This document shows positions 13,881 through 55,196 of a DNA stretch of 64,000 nucleotides, in pieces; position 1 is the first letter of the stretch, and each line of letters opens with the position of its first letter. Both the position numbers and the translations under genes were made by a program. The stretch is from an uncultured Methanosarcinaceae archaeon. GTDB lineage: Archaea > Halobacteriota > Methanosarcinia > Methanosarcinales > Methanosarcinaceae. The DNA is taken from contig CAVSHT010000004.1 in assembly GCA_963727895.1 (NCBI GenBank), forward strand, positions 128,001 through 192,000, read 5' to 3'. The notes under the pieces were generated by a model. That model saw nothing but the letters and a program-made list of their open reading frames with translations, did no database searches and had not been told where the DNA came from.

Positions 13881-13974
13881 AATATTTTAATAACCCCCTA
13901 TACATATTAAATTAATTTGAATATTTGATAAGTTGCCAAAAACGATGTGCTAAGACCCAACTGCGTAACTCCTA

Positions 13975-14025
13975 TATTGATGAAATACAGAAATAAAGAG
14001 TTAACTATGTTTAGTTAACAATGCC
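13975..14025 (+). mobile_element. IS1 right-end fragment
   Basis: Repeats the last ~50 bp of the IS1 copies, ending aacaatgcc. Confidence 0.75.
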
Positions 14026-14103
14026 CGAAAATTTTCTCCTCGCACTTTAAGGCTATAATTGACACCTTTATGTACTATTTTTCCAGGTGATGAGAATGAT
14101 TAA

Positions 14104-14227
14104 CGTTCATGTCCAGAGACCTTCGGCAGTAAATTTGATTTAAATCTTTTGACACAGTCCAGTGAAAATATGGAATTCCTTGGGAGTTTAATTGAGTGTT
14201 ACTGCAGGAGGTCTGTGGACATGAACC
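14104..14227. mobile_element. MITE family B, 124-bp internally deleted copy
   Basis: TIRs cgttcatgtcc / ggacatgaacc with TTAA on both sides; nested in IS6-type remnants spanning about 14026-14275. Confidence 0.8.
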
Positions 14228-14417
14228 TTAACCGATGACCAATGAATCCTTATTATGATTTTTTGCAACAGAACCGATTAAAGCGTTAAATTTGTTTGTT
14301 CTTTCTATTTTTCCTTTATTTTTTCCTGATACGACAATATTTCATTTAGTTATTGGCTTAAAAGGATAGTATATTCAATATTAGGAAAACGCTTATAACT
14401 CCTAAATCGTAACAATT

Positions 14418-15248: not shown

Positions 15249-15949
15249 AGCTCCTAATAATCGCAGGCCCTCCAAGCGGAGGAAAAACAGCTGTGATCCG
15301 CCAGGTTATAAAAAATCTCCCCGAAGGATCCCTTCTCGCCTTCCTGAAGATCGATGTTGTACATGCAACAGAAGACCAGGAACTTGCAGATGAGTTTGAC
15401 ATTCCTGTCAAAAAAATATATTCGGGAGACGTGTGCCCTGACCATATGGGAATTCTGGTCCTTGACGACGCATTACGCTGGGCCGAGAGCATTTTAAGAA
15501 ATATCCTGATAATTGAAAGCGCAGGACTCTGTCTCAGGTGCACTCCTTACACGACTTACTCTCTTGGAATTGCAGTTGTCAGCGCGATCTCAGGCACCAA
15601 TTCCCCGCTCAAAATGGCCCCTTTGCTTGCTCTTGCAGATGTGGCAGTTGTTACCAAAACTGACCTTGTATCACAGGCAGAAAAAGAGGTTTTCAGGGAA
15701 AGCATCCGAAAAGTTGTCCCGAATATTGACATAGTAGAAACAAATGCAGTTCAGGGAACAGGTCTAAGATACCTGATGAGGCGGATTGCCGAGCATCCGG
15801 ATATAGGGCCTGACCCGATCGTGCTCAGAGGTGCCCCTCCGCTTGGCGTCTGTACGGTATGTATTGGGAAAAAAGAAATCGGATGGAAAAACCACTTTGG
15901 AATCATCCGGCCGCTGGATATGCCAGAGCCCATCTACAGAGGCGACTGA
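15245..15949 (+). CDS. HypB/UreG-like (G3E) GTP-binding protein
   Basis: GPPSGGKT, CPDH, IESAGLCLRC, TKTD, C-terminal CTVC. Confidence 0.85.
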   Translation: MKLLIIAGPPSGGKTAVIRQVIKNLPEGSLLAFLKIDVVHATEDQELADEFDIPVKKIYSGDVCPDHMGILVLDDALRWAESILRNILIIESAGLCLRCTPYTTYSLGIAVVSAISGTNSPLKMAPLLALADVAVVTKTDLVSQAEKEVFRESIRKVVPNIDIVETNAVQGTGLRYLMRRIAEHPDIGPDPIVLRGAPPLGVCTVCIGKKEIGWKNHFGIIRPLDMPEPIYRGD

Positions 15950-16056
15950 TGGTGAATAAATGGGATCCTCCGGGTAAAAACTGGAGCTTGCGGTTCCCAG
16001 ATCTGTTCGGACTTTGTTGGGCGGCTTGAAGCAGGATTAACAGAGTTAGATCTGTG
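15949..16056 (+). pseudogene. N-terminus of an Fe-S binding protein, truncated by a MITE
   Basis: MVNKWDPPGKN(C)GACGSQICSDF with a frameshift near 15982; start overlaps GTPase stop (TGATG). Confidence 0.7.
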
Positions 16057-16206
16057 GGTTCCGTTGCAAAAATAATTTTTCTGTACTTTGAGGTTATTCT
16101 TCTTTCCTTTAAATGTCATTTTAATCCAAATTTTCTCACTAAAATTATCTTATTGTGAATGTTTTCAACGATTTTGTAAAATGCTCTGATTTTTTGCAAC
16201 GGAACC
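16057..16206. mobile_element. IS6-type MITE family A, 150 bp
   Basis: Perfect TIRs GGTTCCGTTGCAAAAA, no ORF. Confidence 0.85.
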
Positions 16207-16386
16207 CAAAAACTTATTGACATTGGTAATAACCTGCTCCTTGCTCATCTAGTGCTGCTGACAGAAGACATAAACGCCCTCGGCGTTGCGACGAAAATCG
16301 TCTCCACATGCTTCTCCATACTGCTGCCCGATCTCGTAGTCCGTACCCTGACACTTGATCACTTTGAGCGCCTTTGCTTCCTTCAT
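16207..16386 (-). pseudogene. N-terminal fragment of a C45-family (Ntn-hydrolase) protein
   Basis: MKEAKALKVIKCQGTDYEIGQQYGEAC, in-frame TAG, cut by the MITE. Confidence 0.55.
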
Positions 16387-16434
16387 GAAAATACACCCTC
16401 TTTACTTCATTTTAACGTCCTAACTACGCATGTT

Positions 16435-17076
16435 CTATTTTTCTCTGACCTGGATTTGAGTTTCAGTCAAAAGTTCTTCGTCGGGAATTTCTGTAGTGTC
16501 GTTTAGATATAGCTCTCCGCATAGATCAAAAAGCTCCAGATTGTTTTCTTTAACAAATGAGAGGACACTGTTGTATGCGACTTCAACTTCATAATAAGGT
16601 CCCACACATACAGCAGAAACAGCTTTAGTAGCTGGCAAGGTCTTAATCTCCATTTTTGGATCTTCTATTGAAATTTTGCCAGAAACCGGAAGTGCAATCT
16701 CAATATCGGCATCAGTTTCTTTGTTTTCACAAGCCTTATGCAAGATGTTTATGTTCTTTTGCAACTGCTGAATCTCTGCTTGAGTTTCCTTTATTTTTTC
16801 CTTAAAACACGCCTCTATATGCTCATAATTTCCATCGCTTTCCGCATCTAAAAGCTTAGAGGACTCTTCTAAGGAAAAACCGAGAGAGAGTAAGGTTTTA
16901 ATTTTCATTCCTTTTTCCAGTTGTGTACCGGTGTAATATCGATATCCTGTAAAAGGATCCTTTGCTTCCGGAACAAGCACTCCGTTTTGGTCATAGAACC
17001 TGAGAGCTTTTTTTGAGAGGCGAGTCATAAAAGAAAATATACCAATAGGAATCTGATTTATTGACATCTTGCTCAA
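16435..17076 (-). CDS. MerR-family regulator with GyrI-like domain (appears internally shortened)
   Basis: IG.FS....LS.KALRFYD, TGYRYY; C-terminal ELYLND...LTETQI. Confidence 0.85.
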   Translation of the reverse strand: MSKMSINQIPIGIFSFMTRLSKKALRFYDQNGVLVPEAKDPFTGYRYYTGTQLEKGMKIKTLLSLGFSLEESSKLLDAESDGNYEHIEACFKEKIKETQAEIQQLQKNINILHKACENKETDADIEIALPVSGKISIEDPKMEIKTLPATKAVSAVCVGPYYEVEVAYNSVLSFVKENNLELFDLCGELYLNDTTEIPDEELLTETQIQVREK

Positions 17077-24341: not shown

Positions 24342-26467
24342 GTTGAATAAGAAAGAGCGATTGCTCGCTCTCCCTCTTCTAAGAACCGGACTTGAAAGTT
24401 TCCCTTCATCCGGCTCAAGTGTTCTATAACCCTTTCTGTATCAGGCAGCAGTTTTTTTTCAAACGGATTGACTTTTCCTTGAACTTAATTTATTATGACG
24501 TTCATGGAAGTAGTCGATATCAAGAAATGGATTCATTTGCAGTTTTAAAGGAATGTGTCTATGGATTTTAGTTTTGGATAAAAGCAACAAACTGTTTCTT
24601 TCTGTTCTGAAGTTCCATTTTCGTGTAGCACTTTGCTTCCAATATTTGTTGATAATCCAATTTTTGGATTTGTTTGGATGTCTTCTTTTAGCCCATCTCC
24701 ATAACATTTCCCACATTCGATGGTCAAGTGTCTGGAATGTTTCAGAAGAGACCACTGAATTATGATAGTTAGTCCAACCTCTAATTATTGGATTTAGTTT
24801 GGAAATTAAGTTATCTTGGGACCATGCTATCCCTTTTCTTAAGGTTTGACTAATTGTTTCAGTGAATCTTTTAATGGACTTCTTGGAAGGCTTGGTCAGT
24901 AGCTTGCCTTTGTACTCGCGAAAATTCCAGCCCAGAAAGTCGAAGCCTTCATAATATTTGTGATAAGAGTTTTATCATCAGACAGTTCAAGACCTCTTTC
25001 TTTAAGAAAAACAGCAATCTTATCTTTGATTTCTCTGGCAGTTTCTTCTGAATTAGCAGTTACTATGAAATCATCGCAGTACCTGATGAAGTTAATCTTG
25101 GTTGAATTCTTTTTTTTTAGGGTATTCATCCAAAAGTAACTTCTCAAGACCGTCCAATGTCATATTAGCCAAGATAGGGGAGATCATTCCGCCTTGTGGT
25201 GTGCCTGCTTTTGTTGGATTTGTGTGACGTTTGTAAATAAATCCTGCTTTGAGAAATTGAATTAATACTGATTTTTCCATTGGAATATTGGCCAGTAACC
25301 ACTGATGATTAATGTTATCGAAACACCCTTTAATATCGCCTTCTAAAATCCATTGCGCTGAATTTTTCTTGCTTAGACATAGAAAGATTTGCTCACAAGC
25401 ATCCTTAGTACTTCGGTGTTTTCTAAAGCCAAAGGACCTTATATCAGACAAGGTTTCAGCTATGGGGTCAAGAGCTAATGCGTATAAAGACTGCACAGCT
25501 CTATCATACATTGTAGGGATACCTAAAGGACGTCTCTTCTTTTTACCAGGTTTATTAATGAAAACTCTTTTGAGGGGTTTAGCTTTGTATCTTTTATCAG
25601 TAAGAATAAGAACAGCTTTCATCCTAGAGTCGGGTGTTAGCCATTTCTCACCATCGATTCCAGATGTCCTTTTTCCTTTATTTTGAATGACTCTTCTTAC
25701 TGCCAATAGTTTGGCAGAATAGAAATGTGTCAGTAAATATTGTAATCTCTTAATAAGGTTCCATTTGTTTTGTAAAACTGCTTTTGTAATTCGGGTTTGC
25801 AACTTATTAACGCTTTTCTCTACTTTATGCCAGTTGATACTTTTCTATTTCTGGGAGAGATAAGCGTCTGTAAGCTTCTTATCCTGAAGGGATATCGTTG
25901 AAATACTTACATTCAGAAGTTTGCCTCCTTTCATACAATAGAACACCATCAGTAAGTCTGCATCCTTTCGGATCAAGGCAAAGTTTGAACCTCTATCCAA
26001 TTCATTACAAATTGACATTCGCTTTTTACTGAATCCTATACCCTCTATGCAATTAATTCCCTTCACAGAGTTTCTACCCTTTTTTTTTAATTAAAAGGAG
26101 CATATAGGGCTTACCAAGTTTTATGTCACAAATAATGTAAATGTTTTAGAAGCCATCTATAGACCGGAAAGTGTATGTCCATTTTCTGCGACGTCTGTAA
26201 CACCATCGCACCCTGCTTTCATACCGTTTGGTTCAAGCGTATCAGTCTAGTTTCGCTTGTCATGAGTCACGACCCGTACAATGATTCAACATATGTTTCT
26301 TCATAGCATTTTTACCCTAGCAGATGACCCAAGTTAGACTTTCAGGCTTTTCCACATTGTCTTACGAGCTTAGTACAACTGCATTACTGCTGATGCACCT
26401 CATAATAGGATTACTCTAAATGGAAAGAGTAGCACAAGGCAATTTATGACATAACATCTTGTCGCAC
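24342..26467 (-). ncRNA. group II intron (probably chloroplast-like class)
   Basis: 5' GTGCG, domain V GAGCCGGATGAAGGGAAACTTTCAAGTCCGGTTC, domain VI hairpin ending AAC. Confidence 0.93.
24459..25916 (-). pseudogene. ltrA: intron-encoded reverse transcriptase/maturase without an evident endonuclease domain; TAG at 25845, two frameshifts, CTG start
   Basis: RPLGIPTMYDR, EGDIKGCFDNI, GTPQGG.ISP, RYCDD, X-domain RWAKRRHP. Confidence 0.9.
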
Positions 26468-34443: not shown

Positions 34444-35198
34444 GGCATTGATACTTAAACATAGTTATATACTATTAGAAAGTATATTTCTTAGAAAGTA
34501 TATTTCTTCATGAACTGCCCCAGATGCAATAGTTCCAGTCACAAAAAGAACGGTATAGTTGGTGGGCGTCAACGCTACAAATGCCATGATTGTGGATATA
34601 ACTATACAGTAGAGTTAAAATCAACTGCTTTTTCCGCCTCTGTTAAAAAACAGGCTTTACAACTTTACCTTGAAGGATTGGGCTTTCGTTCAATAGGAAG
34701 AGTTTTAGGGGTGAGTCATGTTTCTGTCCAAAGATGGATAAAGAAATTTGGTCAGTAGTTAGAGGACCTAAAAAGTGAAAATGAGATATCTATTGTTGAA
34801 ATAGATGAAATGCACACTTACATAGGTAACAAAAAAATATTGCTGGATCTGGATTGCTGTTGATAGAGTTGGGAAAAAGTTCATCAACTGCTCTTTTGGT
34901 AGCAGAGGAACGGAAACTGGAAAACTATTCTGGGAAAAATTGAAGAAAAAAGAGATTGGAGAAGTGATGACCGATTACTGGAGGGCATATGCAGAGTTTC
35001 TTCCAGAAACGATTCATACTCAATCAAAAGCAGAAACATTTACAGTTGAGGGATATAACAGCATATTGAGGCACTTTTTGGCAAGGTTGAGAAGAAAGAC
35101 AAAGTGTTATACGAAGAGTCTTGAAATGCTAAAGTACTCGGTTATTCCATTGATGAAATACAGAAATAAAGAACTAGATATATTTGAGTAACAATGCC
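34444..35198 (+). mobile_element. IS1-family element, defective (TAG at 34756, A7 tract)
   Basis: TIRs ggcattg / caatgcc; 16-bp tandem duplication near the left end. Confidence 0.9.
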
Positions 35199-35596
35199 TA
35201 TTCTTAATTCAACTGGCTTTAGAAAGCAGTGTTATTTGTACGTTGAGGAGATGATTTTGCCTTTCTGAATCAAGGACAAAACAGTTACTATTTAATTTTG
35301 ATTACTTTGCGCTGTTTCTCAAATTAATTTTTTATCATTACTCTTGATTTATTTTATAAAAAATATTCTGAAAATACCTCTGTTATACATAATAATAAAT
35401 ATGCAATTATCTAAATACTGTTATACAAAACTTTCAAATTAACTACATAAATTTATCTTACGTTTCATTCATTTAAAATTTTTAATGATATTAAAAATTT
35501 AGCTATTATTAAATATAACTGTCATAGAAAAAATTCAAATTATAAATTTAATTTTAAAGCGATTATGATATATATTCAAATATCATTGAATTATGC

Positions 35597-35704
35597 AGAT
35601 TGAGAGTAGGGTTTCTTCTTAATCTTTGGGTTGGATCGCAGGTAGGAATCCTTGAATAGGGACTTGGAATTCCTACCATCAATCTCTATACTATACATTT
35701 TTTT
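35597..35704 (+). ncRNA. candidate two-hairpin small RNA, copy 1
   Basis: TATA-like box 35568-35575, two stems, oligo-T tail; homolog at 44699-44823. Confidence 0.65.
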
Positions 35705-35957
35705 AAGTTATTACTTCATTTTGTTAGCATTTTTATAACCAACTTTTAAAAATATTTTTTTAGAATATATATTTTTCTTATAGTGTGCCCACGTTTAATA
35801 AAGCTTATGATTTGTCATAGATTCCTGCATATTCCCGATCATCGGGTTTTAGGGTCAACTATACTTCTTGATCAAATTTTTCAGAAAATTATTTTCTCCG
35901 GAGTAATTTTTTGATCGGGGTAACAAAAATTCTAGATAACAGTATGGAACAGAATTG

Positions 35958-36772
35958 GGTTCCGTTGCAAAAAATTTCAAAATAAGCATGTAAATCTATA
36001 GACAATGAACAGAAGTTAAAATATTCAAGAAGATGTATCAATATTATAGAACTATTCCAAATAATTGATTAATATATTTAGCTTCATTAAGACCAGAGTA
36101 ATTTAGATTCTTGACTTGTCCTTTTTTAATCATATTCATCGCTTCAATTCCTTTTAAAGTTTTATTAGCAGATCGAAAAGACTGAAATCCTAACATTGGA
36201 TTAACTATTCGTTTAATGGATCTATGATCCTGTTCTATAATGTTATTCAAATACTTGATTTGTCGAATGCCTACGTTTATAGGTAGTATTTTATCATTTT
36301 TCAGTTTATTTATAGCAGGTGGATAAGCTGGATTTTTGTCAACTGTGATTACTCTTGGAATTTGATTATGATTAGAATTCAAAGCTTTCTTAAAGAAACG
36401 TTTTGCTGCTTTTTGGTCTCGTTTTGCACTTAACATAAAATCAATTGTATCTCCATTTGAGTCAACTGCTCGGTAAAAATATTTCCATTTACCTTTAACT
36501 CTGATATAAGTTTCATCAACTCTCCAAGAGTCGTTTGTTGGTCTTAAATGCCTTCTGACCTTCTTTTCGATTTCAGGAGAGTATTGATGTACCCATCTCA
36601 TAATATGGTTGTATGGTTGACTATTACTCCCCTTTCTGCCATCATTTCCTTTAAATTTCGATAACTTAATGGATATTTTAAGTACCATCTAACATTCAAT
36701 AAAATAATTTCACCCACAAAATGCTTCCATTTAAGGGATTAGATAGCATGTCATTATCCTTTACTTCCCTTT
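35958..36772 (-). mobile_element. IS6-family element, frameshifted, left end replaced by IS21
   Basis: WRVDETYI, ITVDK, IEQDHR; IR ggttccgttgcaaaa. Confidence 0.9.
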
Positions 36773-38230
36773 TGTCAATGCCGGTTTACTTTTCCCCATT
36801 TTGTCCTGATTAATTTTCCCCACCTTGTGATATAAAGTTTACTCAATTTTTCATGAACTTGTTAAAAATTACTGGTATAGATTTCCTGTTTTTATACCCT
36901 GTTTTTTCCTTTCTTTCAGCCTGTAACTTTCCCCTTTGATATTAATCGTCGTAGAATGATGGAGAAGCCTATCAAGCACAGGTTCCATACTGTTACAGCC
37001 GCTATTACATGGTCCTTGAATATCTCTCCCATTCTCCATACGACTTATTCGATGTTAAGATCATTGAATTCCTTTCATAACGTCTTGAGATTAGCTGAAA
37101 TAAACAGTGAGTTCCTTCTTCGTCAAATGGGAGATATCCTATTTCATCAATAATCAGCACTTTATACTTTATCAAGTCCCTGAGTTTCTTTTCAAGCATT
37201 CCTTCTTGATTTGCTGTTTTCAACCTTTCAATAAGGTTTCCTGTATTGGTAAAGTAAACCGAAATCCCCGACTTTACTGCTTCGATTCCAAGAGCAATTA
37301 CAAGGTGAGACTTGCCAACACCTGGTGGACCAAAGAAAACAACATTCTCTGAATTATGAACAAATCTCAAGGTTGCAAGGTCTTCGATTATCTTCTTATC
37401 AATGGATTTCTGAAAATCAAAATAGAATTCCTCAAGAGTCTTTTTAACAGGAAAAACTGCACTTTTCATCTTTCTCTCAATTGCAACAGCTTCTCTGTGT
37501 TTCTTTTCCTGTTCAAATAGATAATCAAGAACTTCCATTGTTGTCTTGTTGTCCCTTACAACAATTTCAAGAAAGTTGTCAAGGAGCTCTTCAACAGTAT
37601 TCAGTTTCAGGTATTGCAGATTGTTGTGAAGCCTCTCATAGGTGAAGTTGTTCATTCAAAACCTCCCTGGCTAAATATTTCATAGACATCAAGAGACCTT
37701 TTTTCAACTTCAGGACCTGAGGATTTCAACGGAATCTGTGAATTTTTCTTGCATTTTGAGTTCTCTTTAAGAATCTCACTCAGTAAACCCTGGAAATGTT
37801 CCTTTTTCCTTGAAACTCTGCAGTTACCTGGGAGAATTGCATGTTCACAGATCTTTTCATAATCAACATAGATCTCTAATTTTTCTTCAAAAATATGAAT
37901 CTCTGCAGTTCTTCCTGCATACCTGTAAGGAACAGAATACTTATTTCCAAGAAATGAAATATAACAGTCTCTGGAGACCTTTCTGGTCTCCTTCTTAACA
38001 ACTTTGTAAGGAGGAACCTGACCCAGAGGGTTCAGGTCCTCCTCCTTAAAGCATTCAAGAGGGATTTGATAGGTTGTTCCATGGACAGTTGAATTTACTC
38101 TTTCTAACCAACTGTTAACTTGGCCATTCAGTTCTTCAAGAGAGGTAAACCTTCTTCCAAGGAAGAAATCCCTTTTGACGTAACCTACCGTATTTTCAAT
38201 TTTACCTTTTGTTTGAGGCCTAAAAGGACA
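36773..38230 (-). mobile_element. IS21-family remnant (3' half of istA, istB frameshifted near its end)
   Basis: IstA PQTKGKIE, IstB GPPGVGKSHL and IIDEIGY; TGT end with ttcccca repeats. Confidence 0.9.
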
Positions 38231-38376
38231 AGTCAAGAATCTAAATTACTCTGGTCTTAATGAAGCTAAATATATTAATCAATTATTTGGAATAGTTCTA
38301 TAATATTGATACATTTTCTCGAATATTTTGATTTTTTCATTATCCATAGATTTACATGCTTATTTTGAAATTTTTG
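38222..38376 (+). mobile_element. IS6 3' remnant
   Basis: Matches the end of the IS6 transposase gene and its downstream sequence. Confidence 0.75.
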
Positions 38377-38442
38377 AACTTGTCCGTTTTGTCCGTTTAT
38401 ACCGCATAGGATAAAATATACAACTACCGATAAATAGTTATT

Positions 38443-38652
38443 ATGGGAGGGGAGTTGAAACTGGAAAACAAAACGATAGAAACTGCGATAGCTAATGTGC
38501 TAAAAAGGTTGAACATTGCATATGTGGATGATACCACGTACAAACGGCTTGTTAACATTGGCTTACAGTATGATTATATTGAAAGTGAACTTTTAGAACA
38601 GATGCTTGAAACCGAATTGGTTATACTTAGTGGGGATTCTGAAAGCTTTTGA
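38443..38652 (+). CDS. hypothetical small protein
   Basis: 69-aa ORF; GGAGGGGAG may be the RBS for an internal start. Confidence 0.45.
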   Translation: MGGELKLENKTIETAIANVLKRLNIAYVDDTTYKRLVNIGLQYDYIESELLEQMLETELVILSGDSESF

Positions 38653-38920
38653 AGTTGGGGTGTAATTTCATTTTTCTTATTTCTTTATTGTTTGTACTCT
38701 CAAATTAATTAGTTGATACTATCAAATTGTAAAAAAGCCGGATTTTATGCAATGGAACTCATTTTCTTGAATATTTTAACTTTTGTTTATCATTCATAGA
38801 TTTACATGCTTATTTTGAGATTCTTTTGCAACAGAATCCTTAAAGGAGCTAATTATTTTCAACAGTATTTGTATATAATTTAAGATAATTTTTATATACA
38901 TTCTCTTTGTACATATTAGT

Positions 38921-39058
38921 ATGAAGTTTTTTAAATTTCCACTTTCGGTTTGGGTATATGTAGGCGGCGCTATTGCTTTGGGTGCTATAGGTCTAGTAAT
39001 TAATCACATAAGATCAAATAAAGTAAAATCTAAAAGAAAGGTCTCAAAACAAAACTGA
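38921..39058 (+). CDS. 45-aa single-TM small protein, possibly leaderless
   Basis: MKFFKFPLSVWVYVGGAIALGAIGLVI then basic tail; TTTATATA about 25 nt upstream of ATG. Confidence 0.5.
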   Translation: MKFFKFPLSVWVYVGGAIALGAIGLVINHIRSNKVKSKRKVSKQN

Positions 39059-39346
39059 AAGTTGACATGCTTCAGAAGCAGAAAGCAGGATTTTTAAAAT
39101 TGGAATTATCAAGCTTAAAATGCAGTATTTTTGGTTCCGTTGCATAAATTTTCTTCTCACGCTTTGAGGCCATAATTGGCACCTTTATGTCCTATTTTTC
39201 TGAGTAATAAGAATGATTAATTGGTCATCGGTTAAGGAATCTGTTACCGTTAAAATAACTATTGAAATCCTTTATGCGTCTCGATTTCCATTTATAGGTT
39301 TACAGAAAAGGCAATGAAAATAACGCATTTCTTATAGATCATATTT

Positions 39347-39496
39347 GGTTCTGGTGCAAAAAATCTGGCTATTTTACAAAATTAATCAAATTCTTCACAT
39401 TTTGGAAAGTTAAACAAAATCTCACCAAAAAATTTGGCACAAAAAAGTAATTATTATATCCTTAAAGTCCGAGACGAAAATTTTTGCAACACAACC
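39347..39496. mobile_element. IS6-type MITE family A, 150 bp
   Basis: Near-identical inverted copy of 41272-41421. Confidence 0.88.
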
Positions 39497-39539
39497 ACTT
39501 TTTCTATATTCAGGAGCAGCTTCTAATATCTTTTTCACC

Positions 39540-40493
39540 TTATTTTGAAATCCAGTTTATATTCTTTTGAGCCATGAATCGATTAAAAGTGCTATAGTTG
39601 AATCCTGATACCCATTTTTGAATATGGTATCCAATTATAATTACGATCAAACTAGCAATAAAAATAACACAGAATTCCATAGGTCCAGTAACACCTAATT
39701 TATTATTAAGATATTTTACAACTGAAAGAAGAGGTTGATGAATCACATAAGTTGCGTATGACGACTGAGCTATATAATATATAACTTCTTGAACACTTAG
39801 AGGAATTTGCGAAAGATATGAGTGGGTTATGTTTAGTAAATTATATCTTCCAGCAAAAATCCCAATTAAAAAAACAGGATAATATAAATAGAATCTAGGA
39901 TCAAAAATATGGTACAGATAACATACAATATATATGCTTAAAGAAATAATGAATATTTCAATATCATCTCTTGCGTATTTTGCGATTATTGCATAAATAA
40001 CATAGTATACCATAATTGTGCCGACAAACCAATCTATATGTCCACCTCCTATATCCATATCAGCTTTAAAAAACCCATGAATTCCTGTCAGTTGATACAA
40101 TAATCCCATAAAACTAAAAAAATTTTCAGTATAAGGAGCAGGGTTAATATGAAAAATCCCAAATATAATGAACTCAAATAATAATCCAATCCACCATATA
40201 GGATAAATTCTGGTGACTCTTTTTTTAAAGTATTGAGTTATACCTTCCTTAGTTTCAAGACTTTTATATCTGCTAGAAAGAGTGTATCCAGAGGCAAAAA
40301 TAAACATTGAAAGCCCTATATACGCAAAAGTAGGACCAAAATATGCATAATGAAGTGATGGATATACATCCATCGAAAAATTTAAAAAAAATCCTAAATG
40401 AGATAATATGATTAATAAAATAGCACACTTTAGAATATCAATTTCTATAAGCTTTTTTGTATTGTAAGATGTTACAGGGTCAAACTTAGACAT
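39540..40493 (-). CDS. acyltransferase-3 (OafA-like) membrane O-acyltransferase
   Basis: IDILK..I.L.ILSH, FIFASGY, KRVTRIYP, WFV, SYATYVIH. Confidence 0.85.
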   Translation of the reverse strand: MSKFDPVTSYNTKKLIEIDILKCAILLIILSHLGFFLNFSMDVYPSLHYAYFGPTFAYIGLSMFIFASGYTLSSRYKSLETKEGITQYFKKRVTRIYPIWWIGLLFEFIIFGIFHINPAPYTENFFSFMGLLYQLTGIHGFFKADMDIGGGHIDWFVGTIMVYYVIYAIIAKYARDDIEIFIISLSIYIVCYLYHIFDPRFYLYYPVFLIGIFAGRYNLLNITHSYLSQIPLSVQEVIYYIAQSSYATYVIHQPLLSVVKYLNNKLGVTGPMEFCVIFIASLIVIIIGYHIQKWVSGFNYSTFNRFMAQKNINWISK

Positions 40494-40593
40494 CTTCTCA
40501 TTCTCCTTAGTAGTACGGAGTAAAATAATTTCTGATCAGATATGTCACCAAAAATCTTAAATCAGTGTCATTAGCAAAGTTTTAGTCTTTTAA

Positions 40594-40700
40594 TCTTCGT
40601 GTCCACAGACCTCCTGCAGTAACAACACTCAATGAAAACTCCCGAGGAATTCCATATTTCCATTGGACTTTGATAGTTGAATGATGAATACTCAGTATTC
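40594..40700. mobile_element. MITE family B, partial copy
   Basis: After TTAA; matches 7607-7705. Confidence 0.7.
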
Positions 40701-40908
40701 TCTTCAAATTGTATGGGTAAAAGTAAATTTCATGCATTTGCTGAAAATTTAAAAATTTAACCAAGTCTAAAAAACAACCTCAAACGATGCATTCAACTTT
40801 ATAACTGTACGATAAAATTGTTGTATATTTTTCGAGTTGGAAACTTCTCCATTGAATTTGAAGAGGATACCAAATTTGCGACACCGCGAAGAAAAAGAAA
40901 AGGAACAA

Positions 40909-41151
40909 TTATCTGCGCTTTACTGTTTTCTGTGCTGATTTCTGTGCTGTTTTCTGTGCTGCACGCTCAGCCTTAACTCTTGGTGCCTTCTTTGAATTTT
41001 GTTCTTTATGTGATCTAGCTTTATCAAAGATCGATGCCTTTTCCGGAGAATATGTTATCATTTTCTTTCTATTTGCATCATCATTCGCCTTTTTAGATTT
41101 CTTTTTGGTTTCAGTTTATTCTTTGCCTAAAATCTTTCTCAATATGCCCAT
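40909..41151 (-). pseudogene. small basic protein with in-frame TAA and AQK(T/S) repeats
   Basis: GGAGGT RBS, MGILRKILGKE*TETKKK...AQKTAQKSAQKTVKRR; three 12-bp tandem repeats. Confidence 0.45.
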
Positions 41152-41271
41152 TTTCTAAACCTCCTTTGCTTTCTTATACATACCTATTTCCATTAATTAG
41201 CTTATTTTCTAAGAGCGTGTTTTAAAATTCATTCTCATAAAGGTTTTCATTTGTATTCGGTTAAAATATGA

Positions 41272-41421
41272 GGTTGTGGTGCAAAAATTTTCGTCTCGTA
41301 CTTTAAGGATATAATAATTACTTTTTTGTGCCAAATTTTTTGGTGAGATTTTGTTTAACTTTCCAAAATGTGAAGAATTTGATTAATTTTGTAAAATAGC
41401 CAGATTTTTTGCACCAGAACC
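41272..41421. mobile_element. IS6-type MITE family A, 150 bp
   Basis: TIRs ggttgtggtgcaaaaa / tttttgcaccagaacc. Confidence 0.88.
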
Positions 41422-41482
41422 GAATACTGCAATGGATAAAGGTCCGCAATTTGATTGGGACCAATTAAAAATCGGAGTTAAC

Positions 41483-42472
41483 TCAAGAAATAATGATATT
41501 AGCAGTCCCTTGAAGATCTATTACTTCATAGGATTCCACTGCTCCTTTAACAAGGCCTTCTCCACCAATAGTTGTTTTACTAGTTGTTCGGATCGCTATA
41601 GTCTTAAATTCTTGTGCTGAATTATCAAGATTAATGTCAGGCACTAACAAAGTCAGTGTTATAGTATGAGAATCCGAAACACTTTGTAAGGTCACTGTCA
41701 CTATCGTACCTATTTCCGTTTTTTGTGTTCGGATTTCATCTCCTGTAAAACTGCGCATACCTTTTGAATCCTCATAGCTGAAAAGAGGTTTACCTGTGAT
41801 GCTAGTTGTCGAATAGCTTATATGTACATCTTTATGCTTTTTTCCAGTTCCATTTAGAACAAATTGGTTTGGTTCATTGATTTTGCTGTCAGAAGTCATA
41901 TTCTGTCCTTTAATCTTTTTTGAAAGGTTGTTTGATGAGATAATATTGTTACAATTAAATGCCGTACCAATTAAATTAGTTATAACATACGATTCAGCTT
42001 GCCCAATACGAGCCGAAGAAGGGAGGGAAGCAGCTTTGTAAGAAGTTGTAATACCGATTGTATGAAACGACGCTGAGGTATTTTTCTTATTTAATAAATT
42101 AACTTTTGGAAGTAAAAAGGTAAATAATGGCTGAGGTGGAGCACCTGGTATAGGTTTTAAAGTGCCCAGAGTGATACTAACCAAAGTACCGAGTTCTGGT
42201 ATGTCGACGCAATGTATTTCTTTATTGGTAAAATGAAATGTCCCAAATTTTTTATTATTATATACAAGATTTGACACTGCACCTGGACCCATAGGTGTAT
42301 ACATCACGCTGATACAATTGCCACTCAAGTGATATTGATATGGATTAATGAATTTTATTTCTGTCGTTTGGCATGATGGAGCCAAAGAAGATGCACCTGC
42401 TGACGCAGCTGTTAGTGATACTACAAATAAGACAACCAGCAAAATAGCCAGTGTTCTTTTTTCTCTGCTCAT
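41483..42472 (-). CDS. secreted hypothetical protein with two related domains
   Basis: Signal peptide; C-domain highly similar to 20679-21197; N-domain a diverged repeat (GTLVSITL, LLPKVNL, TIGITT). Confidence 0.75.
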   Translation of the reverse strand: MSREKRTLAILLVVLFVVSLTAASAGASSLAPSCQTTEIKFINPYQYHLSGNCISVMYTPMGPGAVSNLVYNNKKFGTFHFTNKEIHCVDIPELGTLVSITLGTLKPIPGAPPQPLFTFLLPKVNLLNKKNTSASFHTIGITTSYKAASLPSSARIGQAESYVITNLIGTAFNCNNIISSNNLSKKIKGQNMTSDSKINEPNQFVLNGTGKKHKDVHISYSTTSITGKPLFSYEDSKGMRSFTGDEIRTQKTEIGTIVTVTLQSVSDSHTITLTLLVPDINLDNSAQEFKTIAIRTTSKTTIGGEGLVKGAVESYEVIDLQGTANIIIS

Positions 42473-42589
42473 AAAAATTCATCCCTTGTCAACTACTTTC
42501 AGTGTTTTTGTCACTTGTAATTCACTTTCAATCACTAATAAATAAAAATGTTGTGATGTAAAACTGTGAATGTATTATGAAAAAACATC

Positions 42590-43331
42590 GGTTTTGATAA
42601 TTAATTATAGTTATATACTATTAGAAAGTATATTTCTTCATGAACTGCCCCAGATGCAATAGTTCCAGTCACAAAAAGAACGGTATAGTTGGCGGGCGTC
42701 AACGGTACAAATGCCATGATTGTGGATATAACTATACAGTAGAGCTAAAATCAACTGCTTTTTCCGCCTCTGTCAAAAAACAGGCTTTACAACTTTACCT
42801 TGAAGGATTGGGCTTTCGTTCAATAGGAAGAGTTTTAGGGGTGAGTCATGTTTCTGTCCAAAGATGGATAAAGAAATTTGGTCAGGAGTTAGAGGCTCTA
42901 AAAAGCGAAAATGAGATATCTATTGTTGAACTGGATGAGATGCACACTTACATCGGTAACAAAAAAAATATTGCTGGATCTGGATTGCTGTTGATAGAGT
43001 TGGAAAAAAGTTCATCAACTGCTCTTTTGGCAGCAGAGGAACGGAAACTGGAAAACTACTCTGGGAAAAAGTGAAGAAAAAAGAGATTGGAGAAGTGATG
43101 ACAGATCACTGGAGAGCATATGCAGAGGTTCTTCCAGAAAAGAGTCATACTCAATCCAAAGCAGAAACGTATACTGTTGAAGGAGATATAACAGCATATT
43201 GAAGCATTTTCTAGCAAGATTGAGAAGAAAGACAAAGTGTTATACAAAAAGTCTTGAAATACTAAAGTACTCGGTTATTCTATTGATGAAATACAGAAAT
43301 AAAGAGTTAACTATGTTTAGTTAACAATGCC
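42590..43331 (+). mobile_element. IS1-family element (InsB part frameshifted)
   Basis: Same sequence family as the other IS1 copies. Confidence 0.9.
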
Positions 43332-43654
43332 TCCTTTTACTTTAATGTAAGTTTCATCAGCTCTCCACAAATCGTGTGTTGGTCTTAAATGTTTTCTGAT
43401 CTTCGTTTCTATTTAAGGGGAATATTGATTCATCCATCTCATTATTGTACTGTGATCAACTTGAATTCTTCTTTCTATCATCATTTCCTTTAAATTTCTG
43501 TAGCTCAATGGTATCTTAAGTACTCATCTTACGTTCAATAAGATAACTTCACCTACAAAGTGTTTTCATTTAAAGGAATTAAATAGCATATTACTGCTTT
43601 TTATTTCCTTTTTATTTTAGTATATCCCTAGCAGATATTTTTTGCGACGGACTC
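43332..43654 (-). mobile_element. degenerate IS6 5' remnant
   Basis: Homologous to the IS6 transposase N-terminus; end ttttttgcgacggactc. Confidence 0.7.
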
Positions 43655-43791
43655 CTATATATCAATAATATATTTCAATGCATGTATATATATAACATGA
43701 GCTCTATATATAAGTATTAAAAGATATACTGTTATAGTATTTTCTATTTTTAGAGTGATTAAGCTACTGAAAAATAACATGAGGAATATTT

Positions 43792-43980
43792 ATGGAGTTT
43801 ATAGATTCTTCGATAACATTTAAGCAAAAAAATTTAGTAATAAAGTCTCTTAATTATATGGAGAGGCATAAAAAAATTAGTCAGTGTTGCAAAGAACATT
43901 GCAAAAAGAGCTGGACTGACTTATCCTTTGATGAGGCAAATAACTTAATCCAGATGCTTGACAAGATGGCTTGGAGGTAA
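43792..43980 (+). CDS. hypothetical small protein
   Basis: GAGG RBS, 62 aa. Confidence 0.4.
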   Translation: MEFIDSSITFKQKNLVIKSLNYMERHKKISQCCKEHCKKSWTDLSFDEANNLIQMLDKMAWR

Positions 43981-43992
43981 CTATTCTGATTG

Positions 43993-44035
43993 GTGCAAAA
44001 AATCTGATTTTGTAACAAAGCCAGATTTTTTGCAC
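43993..44035. repeat. 43-bp hairpin derived from MITE family A ends
   Basis: GTGCAAAAAATCTG / CAGATTTTTTGCAC perfect 14-bp IR. Confidence 0.65.
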
Positions 44036-44078
44036 AACGGAAAAAGGACTAATAGGATGCAAAACAAACAGTGATATC

Positions 44079-44324
44079 ATGTTACCTGAAAAAATGGCTC
44101 GGCAAATGTACGCGAAGAATCGTGAAAAGATAATTCAACATGCACGAAACGCACGGCGTGGATACTTTATTGTGAATTTTTATAATAATTATGATGTGAA
44201 AATAAGCTCTGAGAAAGATGATAAATCAGAGTTCAGCTTTCTCATACCTAGCGCGCTTGAATTTCTAGATGTTAAGTTTAACAAAGCATTGACTGATTAT
44301 CTTACTTATGGTAAAAATTATTAA
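44079..44324 (+). CDS. hypothetical protein
   Basis: 81-aa ORF, GTGAT upstream. Confidence 0.45.
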   Translation: MLPEKMARQMYAKNREKIIQHARNARRGYFIVNFYNNYDVKISSEKDDKSEFSFLIPSALEFLDVKFNKALTDYLTYGKNY

Positions 44325-44448
44325 TAAGCCTTTGACTCAGGCGAAATAAGGAAGAATGGACACAACGTCTAAGAGGAAACTATAGTCACAAAAAGGTAGT
44401 GTATCAATTTTTCTGTAAATTTACCCTACGGTTTATGCATAGGTTTTG

Positions 44449-44600
44449 TGGTTCCATTGCAAAAAAAATAGTTCTGCAATTTGACACTATAATTTTCACC
44501 TTTTTCATATCAGTTTCTCCTGTATAAAAATGATTAACTTTCCGAATTGTGATGGTTTTTACTGATTTTGTGAATAAGCCATATTTTTTGCAACGGAACC
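44449..44600. mobile_element. IS6-type MITE family A, 152 bp
   Basis: TIRs ggttccattgcaaaaaa / ttttttgcaacggaacc. Confidence 0.85.
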
Positions 44601-44698
44601 CGGAGTTCAAAATAAGGTTCAGTATAAAGCATGGCTGACCTGGAAAAGGTTATAACATGCTTGTGCAACGAATTGATTGAACCTAAACAGGAGCAGAA

Positions 44699-44823
44699 GA
44701 AAAAAATTCAGAATTTCTGGAGATCAATTTAGAAGTAGATGGTAGAGTTTTGAGTCCCTATTCTCAAATCCCTACCTGCGATCCAACCCAAAGATTAAGA
44801 AGAAACCCTATTACTCTTAATCT
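44699..44823 (-). ncRNA. candidate two-hairpin small RNA, copy 2
   Basis: TATA-like box about 44846-44853, same core as 35597-35677 with compensatory changes, oligo-T tail. Confidence 0.65.
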
Positions 44824-45018
44824 ATACATTTATAATAGCACGGTTATATATATCATCATTGATATCAAAAATTGTTTCTAATTTAAAATTGCAATATAAT
44901 TAAATAATTATATTACATAACATATTTTAATGGTGTAAAAATAAAATGCATTAAATTATATTTCGTTTAAAAACAATTTATTAGATAACTTATTTAATAT
45001 AATTTATAATATTGCTAT

Positions 45019-45156
45019 GTGCTGGAGTTGGGAAATCGAGATGGGGTATCACCAAAGTAAAAGAATCTCCTTGAGGTTGCTGATCTTTCTTCGAACCTTT
45101 GCTTGGGGGAGCATAACTTCGGGAGACTGTATTGGGGGATACAGTAGCTACAGCAC
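45019..45156 (+). ncRNA. candidate structured RNA with UGGGGG-loop hairpins
   Basis: GC-rich island closed by GTGCTG/CAGCAC; two hairpins with the same TGGGGG loop. Confidence 0.45.
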
Positions 45157-45609
45157 TTCTGGGCTTCTTCTTGCATTACATCTTTAATTTGACATAAGTT
45201 GTCAATTTATATAGTGATTCCTTACAAAAACACTTTCTGTCGGCATAGAATTTTTTGGAAAAATGAAACTATCAAAAATCAAAGAATGTAGTCTATAAAT
45301 TACAGTTGTAACAAAATATAACCATGTGGCTGATTTATTCATCATAATATTTATGTTTCTGTCAAATTAGGGTTTCATATTCAAGACTCTGTATCAAATT
45401 TAAAAATGAAAATTCAAGGATTTTATTCATGAAATATCTGAAAATATGTCCAAAATGAAATGCTAACCTGAAATTGCATTCAGATGGTGAGACTCAGTGT
45501 GATATTTGCAGTTACTGGACAAAAGTAGGTACAACAAAACTTGATCCAATTATTTTACGGATGAGGAGTTTGCATGAAGAATACCTAGATTTTTGATATC
45601 TTCTGGTCG

Positions 45610-45840
45610 TCATTGATTTTGTGAATGTTCACCACGGACTTTTTTTAACTGGTAAATACTGGATCTACTCAGCCCTGTCTTTTTTGTGATCTCAGTTTGT
45701 AGCATATCTCTATCAACATATAGCATGAAAAGTTTAAGTTTTTTAATAGATTTCAAATCCAATCCGGTTTCTTCAATCTTCGTACCGTTCAAAACCTCTC
45801 GATAAGCATCGGCTACGCTCATCACCTTAAAATTCCCCAC
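45610..45840 (-). CDS. small HTH protein downstream of the recombinase
   Basis: QTEITKKTGLSRSSIYQL helix-turn-helix; overlaps the recombinase stop. Confidence 0.65.
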   Translation of the reverse strand: MGNFKVMSVADAYREVLNGTKIEETGLDLKSIKKLKLFMLYVDRDMLQTEITKKTGLSRSSIYQLKKVRGEHSQNQ

Positions 45841-46352
45841 TCAGTAAGTCTCTTTTCAATATCTTTCATTTCATAATCTGTAAAACTTAAACTCTGATAG
45901 TGCCTTAATGACGTTACTGGGTCGTGTCCCTGTCTACTGTAAATCTCAATTTCCGGTATTCCAGCTTTAAGCATCCATGACTCTATTGTTTTCCTGGGAG
46001 TCTTCGGGCCGACTTTCGGGCTTATATCTGCTTTCTCAGACCACCTGCTAAGGTTATCCCACCAACTTGTACGATCTGGAGGTCTTCTACCTTCCTGAAA
46101 TGCCTTAATTAGATATGGAAAAGTAGTGGGAAGTTTGTCAATAGTGCGCTTTGGTGCTTTCTGTTTAACCTTCTTCTGAGCTTCCTTTGGGAGTATAATT
46201 TGATTCCTGCTCTCAATGTACCATGATGGATTATAATATAATCTTTGTAATTCGACATAGCGAAGTCCCGTAATTGTGTTAAGTTCAAAAATAAGCTTAA
46301 ACTTTGCAGGTATCGCCTTAACAAATCGATCATACTCTTCGACAGTTAACAC
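45822..46352 (-). CDS. small tyrosine recombinase (catalytic domain only)
   Basis: TGLRYVEL, TPRKT, RQGHD, LRHY; true start probably slightly upstream across an A-tract shift. Confidence 0.82.
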   Translation of the reverse strand: MLTVEEYDRFVKAIPAKFKLIFELNTITGLRYVELQRLYYNPSWYIESRNQIILPKEAQKKVKQKAPKRTIDKLPTTFPYLIKAFQEGRRPPDRTSWWDNLSRWSEKADISPKVGPKTPRKTIESWMLKAGIPEIEIYSRQGHDPVTSLRHYQSLSFTDYEMKDIEKRLTEWGILR

Positions 46353-46759
46353 TTTTAGTGCCGTCTGCTGTTATTAATCCATTTTCTATAAAAATCCCTT
46401 CAAAAAATAGTATACCAACGTTCTATAAATACGTTGGTTTTTATACTTTGTTTTCTAACCCAGTATTAAAAAGATATTTAATTTTTACTCGTTGCTGCCA
46501 TTTTTGCTCTGGCACCATAATCAGAAATACGAACTTTCGAAGTTAAAAACGTTCATATATCAAAAAAGTACAAAGTACGTATACTTTCTTCTTTGGGTAC
46601 TGTGTTGATGAGGTTTAATCTCTTTATAGAGATCACCAAATGCCGAAAATTTATCCAAGACCCCATAGACTACATGTACTCTACTCTTCGAATAGGGCTA
46701 AGTTCCAACTGCGAATAAAATCTACTAAAGATCTATAACACCTAATGGCGATTATATAT

Positions 46760-47030
46760 ATGAACATTGAGCAGAAAAAAATAATAGAAAAATCGATTTT
46801 ATTTAGTGTCATATTTATTGTCTCAACTATATTTATATACTACATTTTTTTTTGCACAATTTGTGCCAACTTCTTATTCTCATACAGTGGAATATGCAAA
46901 TGGAACAAATGGAACAAATGTAACAACGTATGTTGACTCCGCAACAGATTTATATGAAAATATTTTTGTCCTGGTTTCAGGCATCATCGGTTGTGCTTTA
47001 GGAATTATATCTACTAGAATAATTAAATGA
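46760..47030 (+). pseudogene. small two-TM membrane protein split by a shift in a T-tract
   Basis: ORFs 46745 and 46806 join at the T9 run near 46845. Confidence 0.45.
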
Positions 47031-47122
47031 CTGATTGTACTAAACTCCCAATTGACTTAAGTGATCTATAACTGTCATAGTCTTTTTTTCAAAAAGACTT
47101 ATATTTTCCATTTAGTAACACC

Positions 47123-47981
47123 GGTTCCGTTGCAAAAAATCTCAGAATAAGCATGTAAATCCATAATCAATAACCAAAAGTACAAATATTCAAAAAGATG
47201 TGTCAATATTATAGAACTATTCCAAATAATTGATTAATATATTTAGCTTCATTAAAGCCAGAGTAATTTAGGTTTTTGATTTGTCCTTTTTTAATCATAT
47301 TCATAGCTTCAATTCCTTTTAAAGTCTTAATAGCTGTGTTAAAAGACTGAAATCCTAACATTGGATTAACTATTCGTTTAATGGATCTATGATCTTGTTC
47401 TATAATGTTATTCAAATACTTGATTTGTCGAATGCCTACGTTTATAGGTAGTATTTTATCATTTTTCAGTTTATCTATAGCAGGTGGATAAGCTGGATTT
47501 TTATCAACTGTGATTACTCTTGGAATTTGATTATGATTAGAATTCAAAGCTTTCTTAAAGAAACGTTTTGCTGCTTTTTGATCTCGTTTTGCACTTAACA
47601 TGAAATCAATTGTATCTCCATTTGAGTCAACTGCTCGGTAAAAATATTTCCATTTACCTTTAACTCTGATGTAAGTTTCATCAACTCTCCAAGAGTCGTT
47701 TGTTGGTCTTAAATGCCTTCTTACCTTCTTTTCGATTTCAGGAGAGTATTGATGTACCCATCTCATAATATGGTTGTATGGTTGACTATTACTCCCCTTT
47801 CTGCCATCATTTCCTCTAAATTTCTATAACTTACTGGATATTTTAGGTACCATCTGACGTTTAATAAAATGATTTCTCCTTCGTAATGTTTCCACTTAAA
47901 GGAATTAGATAGCATATTATCGTTCTATTGATTTTCTCCTTATTCAATTGAATCCTTATTATGATTTTTTGCAACAGAACC
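47123..47981 (-). mobile_element. IS6-family element, both ends present, frameshifted transposase
   Basis: IRs ggttccgttgcaaaaaa / ttttttgcaacagaacc; DDE motifs. Confidence 0.93.
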
Positions 47982-51131: not shown

Positions 51132-51947
51132 GAAATTCTAATACCAAACAATCAAATAAAGATAATTTATGATGAAGTTATATATAAAATAACTCTCAGA
51201 ACGCTGCATGAGCTTTTTGAATCTGATCTGGCAAGCGCGATTGATACCATTTCTTTCAATGGCTGGGTAAAATCAATAAATAAAGCGACAGGTAAAGAAG
51301 AAAACAACTGCATTTTAAGCATACAAGCAAAGAAAGAAGAATTCATAGACATAGACTTATCAAACGTTGATCCCAAGACCTGCTTTAAGAGCTTAAAGGG
51401 AGTTGCAAGTAGCAAATTAAGTACTCTAACACCGATTCAGCCGATTTTACAAATTAGCAGAGAGGACAAACGATTTGTAGATAGCTATGAAGTCGAGGAT
51501 AAAATTGATAATTCAACTAATCTCGCTGCAATGGACTGGGAAGAATTTGAGCACTTGATTAGGGAACTATTTGAAAGAGAATTCAAAGTCAATGGTGGAG
51601 AAGTAAAAGTAACGCAAGCCAGTAGGGATGGCAGTGTAGATGCTATAGCTTTCGACCCTGACCCTATTAGAGGCGGAAAAATAGTAATTCAAGCAAAGAG
51701 ATACACAAATCCAGTTGGAGTTTCAGCAGTAAGAGACTTATACGGAACTATTTTAAATGAAGGCGCAACAAAAGGAATACTGGTAACTACTTCAGATTAT
51801 GGGTCCGATTCATACGATTTCGCAAAGGGTAAACCATTAACACTATTGAAAGGTTCAAACCTATTATACCTTCTTGAAAAACATGGAACCCATGCAAAAA
51901 TTGACTTGCGAGAAGCAAAAAGAATATTGAAAGAAAATAGTGAGTAG
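51132..51947 (+). pseudogene. Mrr-like restriction endonuclease, N-terminus lost at IS1
   Basis: Open frame from the IS1 end (LRTLHELFESD, FNGWV) into FEHLI..LF, D.SVDA, IVIQAKRY. Confidence 0.82.
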
Positions 51948-54375: not shown

Positions 54376-55196
54376 AAAAATATTAAAGTTATTGTATATT
54401 TAAAAAACTACTGATATTTATTAGAAGACAAGTTAAAGAGAATAACAACAACATTTAAGTAAAGATATTATAAACAGATCTTTTGGAGATCTAAACGTTT
54501 CATGGTAAGAATAACGCAATAACGCCCAAATGGTGAACAACATCAAGACCAAATAAGCAACTAAAGATTAGAGTACTTATTGAGCTTATTACGAATGTAT
54601 TGTAATTAGCTACAAAAAGTGCAACAAAAAAGCCTATGATTTAAATTATTCTAATATCTCCATTCTTTTTTACAAACAATTTAAACTCATCCGCAATAGG
54701 AACTGGATCTATTTTTTTAGTATTGATGTTGGGATATAAAACTCTAACTTTCTCAACGAGCCACCGAAAATACACAATGTTTTGAGATATATTTAAAACC
54801 CCGACAACTACACAATACCCCCAGGATAATTTTTATATAATAGTAATGGGTAATAAGAATCCGGTTGCTTATGAGAAAATACTAAAAGCCTCATTTCACA
54901 CACCAGATTCAAAAGGATTATTATGAAGGATAAGTTTCATCCCCTTCTTCTTGTCCGTTTATAATCGTTTTCTCGTAAGCAACTATCCTTTCCATATTTT
55001 TATAAATCTAAAATTCAGGTATTCCTTATTATAGTCCTGATTGTAAGAAATTCACTTAAATCTCTTAACTGCCCTGTTCTCTCATATATCTGTGTAAATT
55101 TTCCATATAATCTGCTTTTTTTTCAACTTGAATTCAATATAAGACCGAAGAATAAGACCTATTATTTAAATATCGACAGCTCTATTTAGTATCAAG

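Follow-up and report, generated by a model that had tools for sequence, protein, structure and literature searches.

The question raised by this locus is what is encoded by two short, similar units on opposite strands of a 64,000-nucleotide stretch of DNA (here called the window; contig CAVSHT010000004.1 of assembly GCA_963727895.1, positions 128,001 to 192,000) from an uncultured Methanosarcinaceae archaeon: copy 1, with its core at 35597–35693 (+), and copy 2, with its core at 44725–44823 (−). Both belong to a conserved, expressed family of small RNAs (sRNAs), members of which have been catalogued and, in the literature searched, neither recognised as a family nor given a target. The preferred reading, to which a probability of roughly 0.6 is assigned from sequence evidence, is that these sibling RNAs act in trans and repress messenger RNAs (mRNAs) of disaggregatase-family β-helix proteins, by means of a linker seed that would pair at the ribosome-binding site and of two further contacts made by hairpin loops. 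The predicted pairing of sRNA and target, taken by itself, is considered quite probable.

Both copies were located where the original prediction had placed them, and their similarity is far above chance (BLAST E 1.8e-18). Each is preceded by a TATA-like promoter box, TGATATATAT (35566–35575 (+), predicted start about 35596; 44846–44855 (−), predicted start about 44825), with a gap of 21–22 nucleotides (nt) between box and unit, and is followed by a T7 tract in the sequence (35698–35704 (+) and 44700–44706 (−)), which is likely to act as terminator. A block of 40 nt is identical between the copies (35607–35646 and 44810–44771); together with the boxes and the T7 tracts it bears out the invariant stretch, the upstream TGATATATAT and the downstream oligo-T that had been described. 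In copy 1 (+ strand), hairpin 1 spans 35597–35625, and its loop (35607–35615, seed 1) is complementary to target codons 7–9; the linker seed lies at 35624–35636, and hairpin 2 at 35641–35677, whose loop, AATAGGGA (35655–35662), is seed 3, with its complement in the target at −32. In copy 2 (− strand), the corresponding parts are hairpin 1 (44792–44823, loop 44813–44802 as seed 1), the linker seed (44781–44793) and hairpin 2 (44741–44776, loop AATAGGGA at 44762–44755). Either linker seed is a 13-nt perfect complement of target positions −21 to −9, a site that overlaps the Shine–Dalgarno sequence. The cores scored 84.6 bits (copy 1) and 111.2 bits (copy 2) with a covariance model to whose training alignment both belonged; of the six copies, copy 1 has degenerated furthest: its loop 1 is shorter by 3 nt, and its apical helix contains two U–U mismatches.

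The folding of each single copy is ordinary in comparison with shuffles (z −1.15 and −1.52), and the case for the structure is therefore built on covariation. A 55-row alignment of copies was used for the structure test and for the covariance model. A structure of 28 pairs is paired in 95.9% of the alignment cells (35–51% for slid control structures), and two-sided changes occur at nine of these pairs, in 53 cells as against 17.2 in shuffles (0 of 500 reached the observed count); because relatedness is not modelled in the shuffle and the tested sequences themselves served to draw the structure, the result is read as support and not as a probability. The covarying stems of the original prediction are upheld by these counts, and the G–U/A–U swap in stem 1 and the re-pairing of stem 2 around AATAGGGA were seen as noted. 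A weak helix drawn through the linker shows no two-sided change, and the linker is therefore not conserved for internal pairing. The tips of both hairpins share a loop motif and its closing triplet, which gives two motifs per unit and four in tandem pairs. A G-quadruplex formed from four G runs was rejected on inspection, one run being paired and runs being missing in copy 1 and in divergent types.

The description of the element as a two-copy family proved wrong: the source genome contains six close copies and one divergent copy of this two-hairpin RNA gene of about 97 nt. By BLAST the element was found in 30 of 36 genomes of the same genus, and by the covariance model in 33 of 34, two of two and six of six genomes of three related genera (41 of 42 in total), with one to 13 matches per genome. 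The model gave no match in 108 genomes of 13 other sampled genera of Methanosarcinaceae and none in 87 genomes from other families of the order, in which a BLAST search returned one weak match (E 0.0055); viral contigs searched with one 21-nt motif gave none. Nearly all non-tandem copies have their own box 31–35 nt before the unit, and some copies are head-to-tail second units without one. A home locus, between genes for a pyridoxal-phosphate (PLP)-dependent decarboxylase and a 2-oxoacid:ferredoxin oxidoreductase, is conserved; copies outside it are dispersed, and their neighbours differ.

Several other classes of element were considered. With regard to type I or III toxin–antitoxin RNAs, no conserved toxin gene, whether adjacent or overlapping, was found and the neighbours vary; with regard to insertion sequences (IS) or miniature inverted-repeat transposable elements, no terminal inverted repeats or target duplications were visible in 65 aligned flanked hits, inspected by eye without a repeat finder; with regard to guide RNAs, no C/D or H/ACA boxes were seen in the unit, and five seed complements were absent from 16S ribosomal RNA. 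Mimicry of the 16S 3′ end was discarded, the likeness covering only 7 nt in a differing order. When both copies were scanned against Rfam, no match at the gathering score or at E≤10 was obtained save four chance matches; the suggested comparison with the sRNA154, sRNA162 and sRNA41 models thus came back negative, neither copy reaching the gathering threshold (copy 2 in one scan only). A scan of copy 2 for bacterial promoters and terminators, ill-suited to archaea, stayed at chance level.

Evidence of transcription comes from Methanosarcina mazei Go1. According to the supplements of PMC11456600, sRNA145, sRNA146 and spRNA41 are close relatives and sRNA084 and sRNA085 divergent ones; the five entries lie on the same strand, measure 94–106 nt (one is annotated with 183 nt) and begin 2–8 nt before the unit, and the mapped 5′ end of the three close entries falls 30 nt downstream of the position where the box begins in the matching copies of genome G012. 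In the same tables, expression of three entries amounts to 700–17,000 RNA reads per kilobase per million with a translation efficiency of 0.11–0.41, and the close entries show no significant nitrogen response. As far as the catalogue was accessible, the five stand as separate, unrelated entries, three of them flagged as possibly translated, with no family, structure, target or function, and in the available main text of PMC11456600 none is named apart from sP41, mentioned once. The window copies agree with these entries in sequence family, strand, length and promoter spacing. A literature search found no description of the family, its structure or its target, although Jager et al. 2009 and Prasse et al. 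2015 may note homology; family RNAs and targets are unmentioned in the accessible text of a paper on MetSV infection. In metatranscriptome contigs from four runs, family sequence occurs on short contigs, some ending a few bases at most from the 5′ end of the unit and two with tandem units; these contigs were not counted as evidence because word shares are small, strand and level are unreadable and a DNA control is lacking. The mapped and abundant M. mazei homologues, the fixed promoter spacing and the covarying stems sustain the proposal of an independently transcribed sRNA family. A match to a known sRNA, which had been named as a possible refutation, does exist at the level of these catalogue entries, but not at that of a described family. 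A very abundant 58-nt hairpin RNA of unrelated sequence, sRNA144, is encoded on the strand opposite to that of sRNA145, about 470 nt away (home locus L113), as listed in the accessible part of the catalogue.

Candidate targets were sought among 2601 crudely called start regions of the source genome. The complement of the loop motif occurs in six of these, two of which belong to β-helix paralogues on C3 and C9, distant from every sRNA copy. The C3 paralogue carries a 13-nt perfect complement of the linker, placed just before and into the Shine–Dalgarno sequence, and the C9 paralogue one of 11 nt; in the C3 gene, loop 2, the linker and loop 1 are opposed, in antiparallel order, to sites at −32, −21 and +20, respectively. 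Across the 3.67-Mb genome, the two-site pattern is present at only two places, each at the start of one of these β-helix paralogues. By summed seed energies, these paralogues ranked first and second of the 2601 for the three copies tested of six (z −6.3 and −5.7 with copy 2), and none of 12 shuffled seed sets matched the observed best. The gain on cofolding was −20.2 and −17.4 kcal/mol, in comparison with −3.8 ± 2.7 (minimum −11.8) for 150 random start regions. The earlier idea of a multi-seed regulator is supported and is now joined to a candidate target; the repeated loops complement the target, and the most informative seed is the linker, which had not been singled out. Taken together as marks of a trans-acting sRNA, a short independent transcript with its own promoter (from box spacing and the mapped M. 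mazei homologues), a conserved structure without a conserved reading frame, and a conserved seed with its complement in an mRNA from another locus were found.

Conservation of the site was measured in orthologous loci, 31 of which were fetched by protein similarity and 29 captured by a signal-peptide expression with fixed residues and free codons. Among the 29 orthologues, the non-coding positions −21 to −13 are conserved at 0.90–1.00, versus mostly 0.4–0.85 further upstream; bases −21 to −16 reach 0.90–1.00 yet have no cis partner in the models. In codons 6–10, one codon is used in 0.97–1.0 of rows, the mean being 0.80. The site pattern occurs in 33 of 34 genomes of genus g1, in six of six of g25 and in neither of two of g14, whose disaggregatase-like genes carry variant sites fitting their own sRNAs; among 108 genomes of genera without the sRNA it was seen in two, related β-helix proteins being present in 21. 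In one divergent lineage, site and seed appear to have changed together: the G076 linker forms 12 pairs with the site of its own genome (−25.4) and scores −17.2 on the source-genome site, and for the source-genome linker the values are −23.8 on the cognate target and −18.1 on the G076 one. The cognate fit of linker and site is also good in G061, G116 and G166; such co-change was followed in few independent lineages and without a statistical test. Among 18 more distant homologues, the linker site is found in four, one of them a G166 gene of 41% identity that has all three sites; the majority of distant paralogues that share the Shine–Dalgarno sequence and a similar signal peptide are without the linker site.

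The target leaders contain further conserved sequence and extra CCCTA sites. Many have one or two additional, degenerate cassettes about 140 nt upstream, in which CCCTA is kept in 18 of 19 cases and the linker site in 7 of 19. These tandem duplicates of about 140 nt comprise the start region and signal-peptide codons, in the form of upstream open reading frames (ORFs) of 26–48 codons; the leaders that bear them include L116, L147, L150, L151, L155, L162, L163 and L166.

The predicted targets encode secreted right-handed β-helix proteins (PF13229, PF12708), with MM_1118 and MM_2864 as counterparts in M. mazei. The disaggregatase repeat PF06848 was found in two of 13 cassette-bearing proteins scanned, and also in G008 and G166; some cassette-bearing proteins carry PF06848/NF033679, and one in G166 has PF08480 as well. 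A gene with full disaggregatase architecture follows the site in G166, and an identical site is found before differing mature proteins. The alignment-based model of the C3 protein (predicted local distance difference test score, pLDDT, 92.5; 56 for a single-sequence model) resembles alginate epimerases, a Vibrio polysaccharide lyase, galacturonases and adhesins at 9–18% identity; a search of PDB sequences with the target protein gave no match. The disaggregatase of M. mazei degrades methanochondroitin and disperses aggregates, and the accessible text of the review that describes it mentions no regulator or sRNA control (PMC12369344). The predicted targets share its secreted β-helix fold; activity on methanochondroitin is, in the available part of that source, shown for the M. 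mazei enzyme only, and the source-genome targets are without its domains. A role of the targets in disaggregation is predicted, as a further step, from domain content and fold. Two further loci were noted: a secreted protein of 290 residues with target cassette and signal peptide and no Pfam/NCBIfam match (L154:3316–4185 (−), L289), and L270 (C5 of G166), where cassette-bearing disaggregatase genes adjoin acyltransferase and polysaccharide flippase genes in a locus resembling those for surface polysaccharides.

In the mechanism proposed, the linker would pair with mRNA positions −21 to −9 through 13 Watson–Crick pairs (15 when extended), over the 5′ end of the Shine–Dalgarno sequence AGGUGAU; loop 1 would pair with codons 7–10 and loop 2 with CCCUA near −31, and the start region would thus be clamped on both sides. 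Initiation would be blocked and/or the mRNA would decay, and the proteins withheld would be extracellular glycan-modifying enzymes acting on methanochondroitin. The many sRNA copies would therefore set a high threshold: as a proposal, cells would stay aggregated until transcription of the targets exceeds the sRNA pool. A bolder and rather doubtful extension is that the sibling sRNAs govern the switch between aggregates and single cells in Methanosarcina through this three-point clamp; the sRNA family would be an expanding one, the target cassette a portable module attached to various secreted enzymes and duplicated in leaders to serve as decoys, and the divergent siblings would act on other paralogues.

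The following observations weigh against repression by the sRNA as described. The target candidate emerged post hoc from a motif search; single seeds rank fourth to eighth and none first; and the C9 gene has no −32 site, so that loops 1 and 2 score on one site because seeds were scored independently. Pairing by M. mazei sRNA145/146 is weaker (−17.3). The leader also carries UUUGGG near −75, which can pair with CCCAAA of the linker site and offers a partial explanation in cis for the conservation of that site. Among later synonymous columns, 29 of 117 are likewise conserved at ≥0.95; the related genomes are non-independent samples; and the linker site is kept in G008 and G018, in which just a divergent-type copy was detected. 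As to the proteins, PF06848/PF08480 is in neither source-genome target, a frameshift divides the C9 gene, several long genes of disaggregatase architecture have no site, and the fold matches take in non-enzymatic adhesins. Lastly, the published translation efficiency, from one condition, is 2.3 for MM_1118 and 4.0 for MM_2864, which shows no silencing of the M. mazei targets at the level of single transcripts and, few reads being involved, leaves the sign of the regulation less sure than the pairing. The scarcity of both mRNAs (mean 69 and 7 reads, respectively) fits decay and equally plain low transcription.

All of the complementarity evidence would apply just as well if the sRNA stabilised or activated the same mRNAs, by masking cleavage sites or competing with the leader fold, or if the leader cassettes titrated the sRNA. 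The two translation efficiencies are in keeping with this alternative, as are the modelled fold of the leader over its own Shine–Dalgarno sequence (unpaired probability 0.17–0.47) and the extra upstream cassettes with their well-kept CCCTA. It is nevertheless judged unlikely, in view of a main duplex that spans two to four of the seven Shine–Dalgarno bases and falls within the usual ribosome footprint, and of the poor retention of the linker site in those same cassettes.

The complementarity might also be a trace of common origin, in which either the sRNA or the leader arose by inverted copying of the other and each side is conserved separately. Blocks of the leader are indeed complementary to the paired arms of stem 2 (for the C3 gene 13 nt at −150, otherwise 7–9 nt), the UUUGGG partner in cis is conserved, and sites persist in G008 and G018; but the best-kept matches involve unpaired parts of the sRNA, positions −21 to −16 are conserved without a modelled cis partner, and seed and site seem to have co-changed in G076 and fit well in three other genomes. 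A common origin of this kind thus appears improbable.

Repeated G-rich motifs in hairpin loops, present in multiple copies, are the means by which CsrB, RsmY and RsmZ titrate a protein, and the original prediction had offered a protein sponge. In a CsrB-like version of it, GAG-closed AAUAGGG loops would capture an RNA-binding protein. The same motif and closing triplet at both hairpin tips would suit such a role, and so would copies that are many, abundant and sometimes arranged head-to-tail without a second promoter. In the 2601 leaders, however, the motif is depleted and not enriched (TAGGG 54 versus 92 in shuffles, AATAGGG 6 versus 14), which leaves the sponge unsupported; the hairpin-tip pattern recurs at five loose, unrelated places only, divergent members alter loop 2 and retain the linker, and a conserved complementary mRNA site is found instead. 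No candidate RNA-binding protein was identified, and none was searched for. The sponge is considered quite improbable.

Coding potential was assessed in 61 copies, four of 65 hits (one duplicate locus and three partial or gapped) having been dropped. No start codon or frame is conserved across the 61: the first frame begins with ATG in 13 copies and in 21 with a TTG that lies three bases inside the unit and is part of a covarying stem pair; the second has a start in 35 (ATG in two) and extends over 8–52 codons. Segment lengths among copies differ by non-multiples of three, and the frames of the window copies would yield 9 and 20 residues. The G012 copy that matches spRNA41 contains an ATG frame of 53 codons, within the 23–61 range quoted for the 2015 peptides; this frame may correspond to sP41, in which case it would be a copy-specific gain. 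In the accessible parts of PMC11456600, sP41 is stated to have been detected by liquid chromatography–mass spectrometry in 2015, and ribosome-profiling (Ribo-seq) ORFs are listed on spRNA41, sRNA146 and sRNA084, with empty proteomics columns and, for spRNA41, an ORF start that precedes the mapped 5′ end by 4 nt. That the RNAs are mRNAs for small proteins of an sP41 family, or RNAs of dual function whose chief product is a peptide, can draw on that detection, those ORFs and the 53-codon frame, and is held to be very improbable in the face of frames that are not conserved, shift out of register among copies and begin, in spRNA41, before the transcript.

Variants of the family were also recorded. 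The divergent member of the source genome lies at C9:341211–341311 (−) (L114; orthologues in L110, L112, L077 and L087); this type, sRNA085 in M. mazei, has a fixed position, flanked by an FmdE-like gene and one for a FilR1-like regulator, and its loop 2 contains a Shine–Dalgarno-like GAGGUG. The best fit of its linker is to a disaggregatase-like gene of genome G112. For sRNA085, ribosome reads outnumber RNA reads in the available tables, and the Ribo-seq change is significant. Short one-hairpin variants (L242, L245, L248, L252, L098 and L100) occur in G166 and g25 genomes and not in the source genome; they keep loop 1 and a linker, and their upstream region is different.

Within the window, the surroundings of the two copies are rich in mobile elements (IS1, IS6-type, IS21, a truncated tyrosine integrase and an Mrr-like fragment; tracts at 34510–38236, 42640–43074, 45822–47766 and 51531–51947). 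Matches to group II intron domains lie at 7826–7974, 24342–24418 and 26287–26431 (−), and an Rfam sRNA154 match, unrelated to the two-hairpin family, at 54862–54995 (+) (94.8 bits). The sRNA154 match indicates the genus Methanosarcina, which the published M. mazei sequences bear out. A candidate G-rich multi-hairpin RNA at 45015–45185 (+) stands back to back with copy 2; as a partner of the targets it was rejected, with 8 nt complementary to their Shine–Dalgarno region and no block longer than 9 nt.

Near-identical, separately promoted sRNAs whose redundant seeds mask ribosome-binding sites are exemplified by Qrr1–5 of Vibrio and LhrC1–7 of Listeria, and LhrC has three repeated motifs in loops and linker. 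The present family, likened to these by description only, differs in being archaeal, in having G-rich instead of C-rich seeds and in having no known dependence on Hfq. In M. mazei, sRNA41 presumably pairs with a ribosome-binding region. It is named as a trans-acting archaeal sRNA in the accessible part of bioRxiv 10.1101/2025.10.28.685009, and sRNA162 and sRNA171 are described in the available text of PMC3510493 as acting in trans on ribosome-binding regions, as is predicted here, sRNA162 having a duplicate. The family is distinguished from these three by the absence of any sequence relation in Rfam, by its one to 13 matches per genome and tandem units, by three seeds flanking one start site, and by targets that would be cell-surface enzymes.

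Five orphan sRNA entries of M. mazei, a genetically tractable model strain, are united here into one family, and MM_1118 and MM_2864 are new as its predicted targets. Some Ribo-seq small ORFs, possibly including sP41, are located on structured regulatory RNAs, which serves as a warning for their interpretation. As sibling sRNAs for which a target is predicted, the family would be unusual among archaea. With targets named and the exact bases given, control of the break-up of aggregates becomes directly testable, and such control would have a bearing on the stability of granules in anaerobic digesters.

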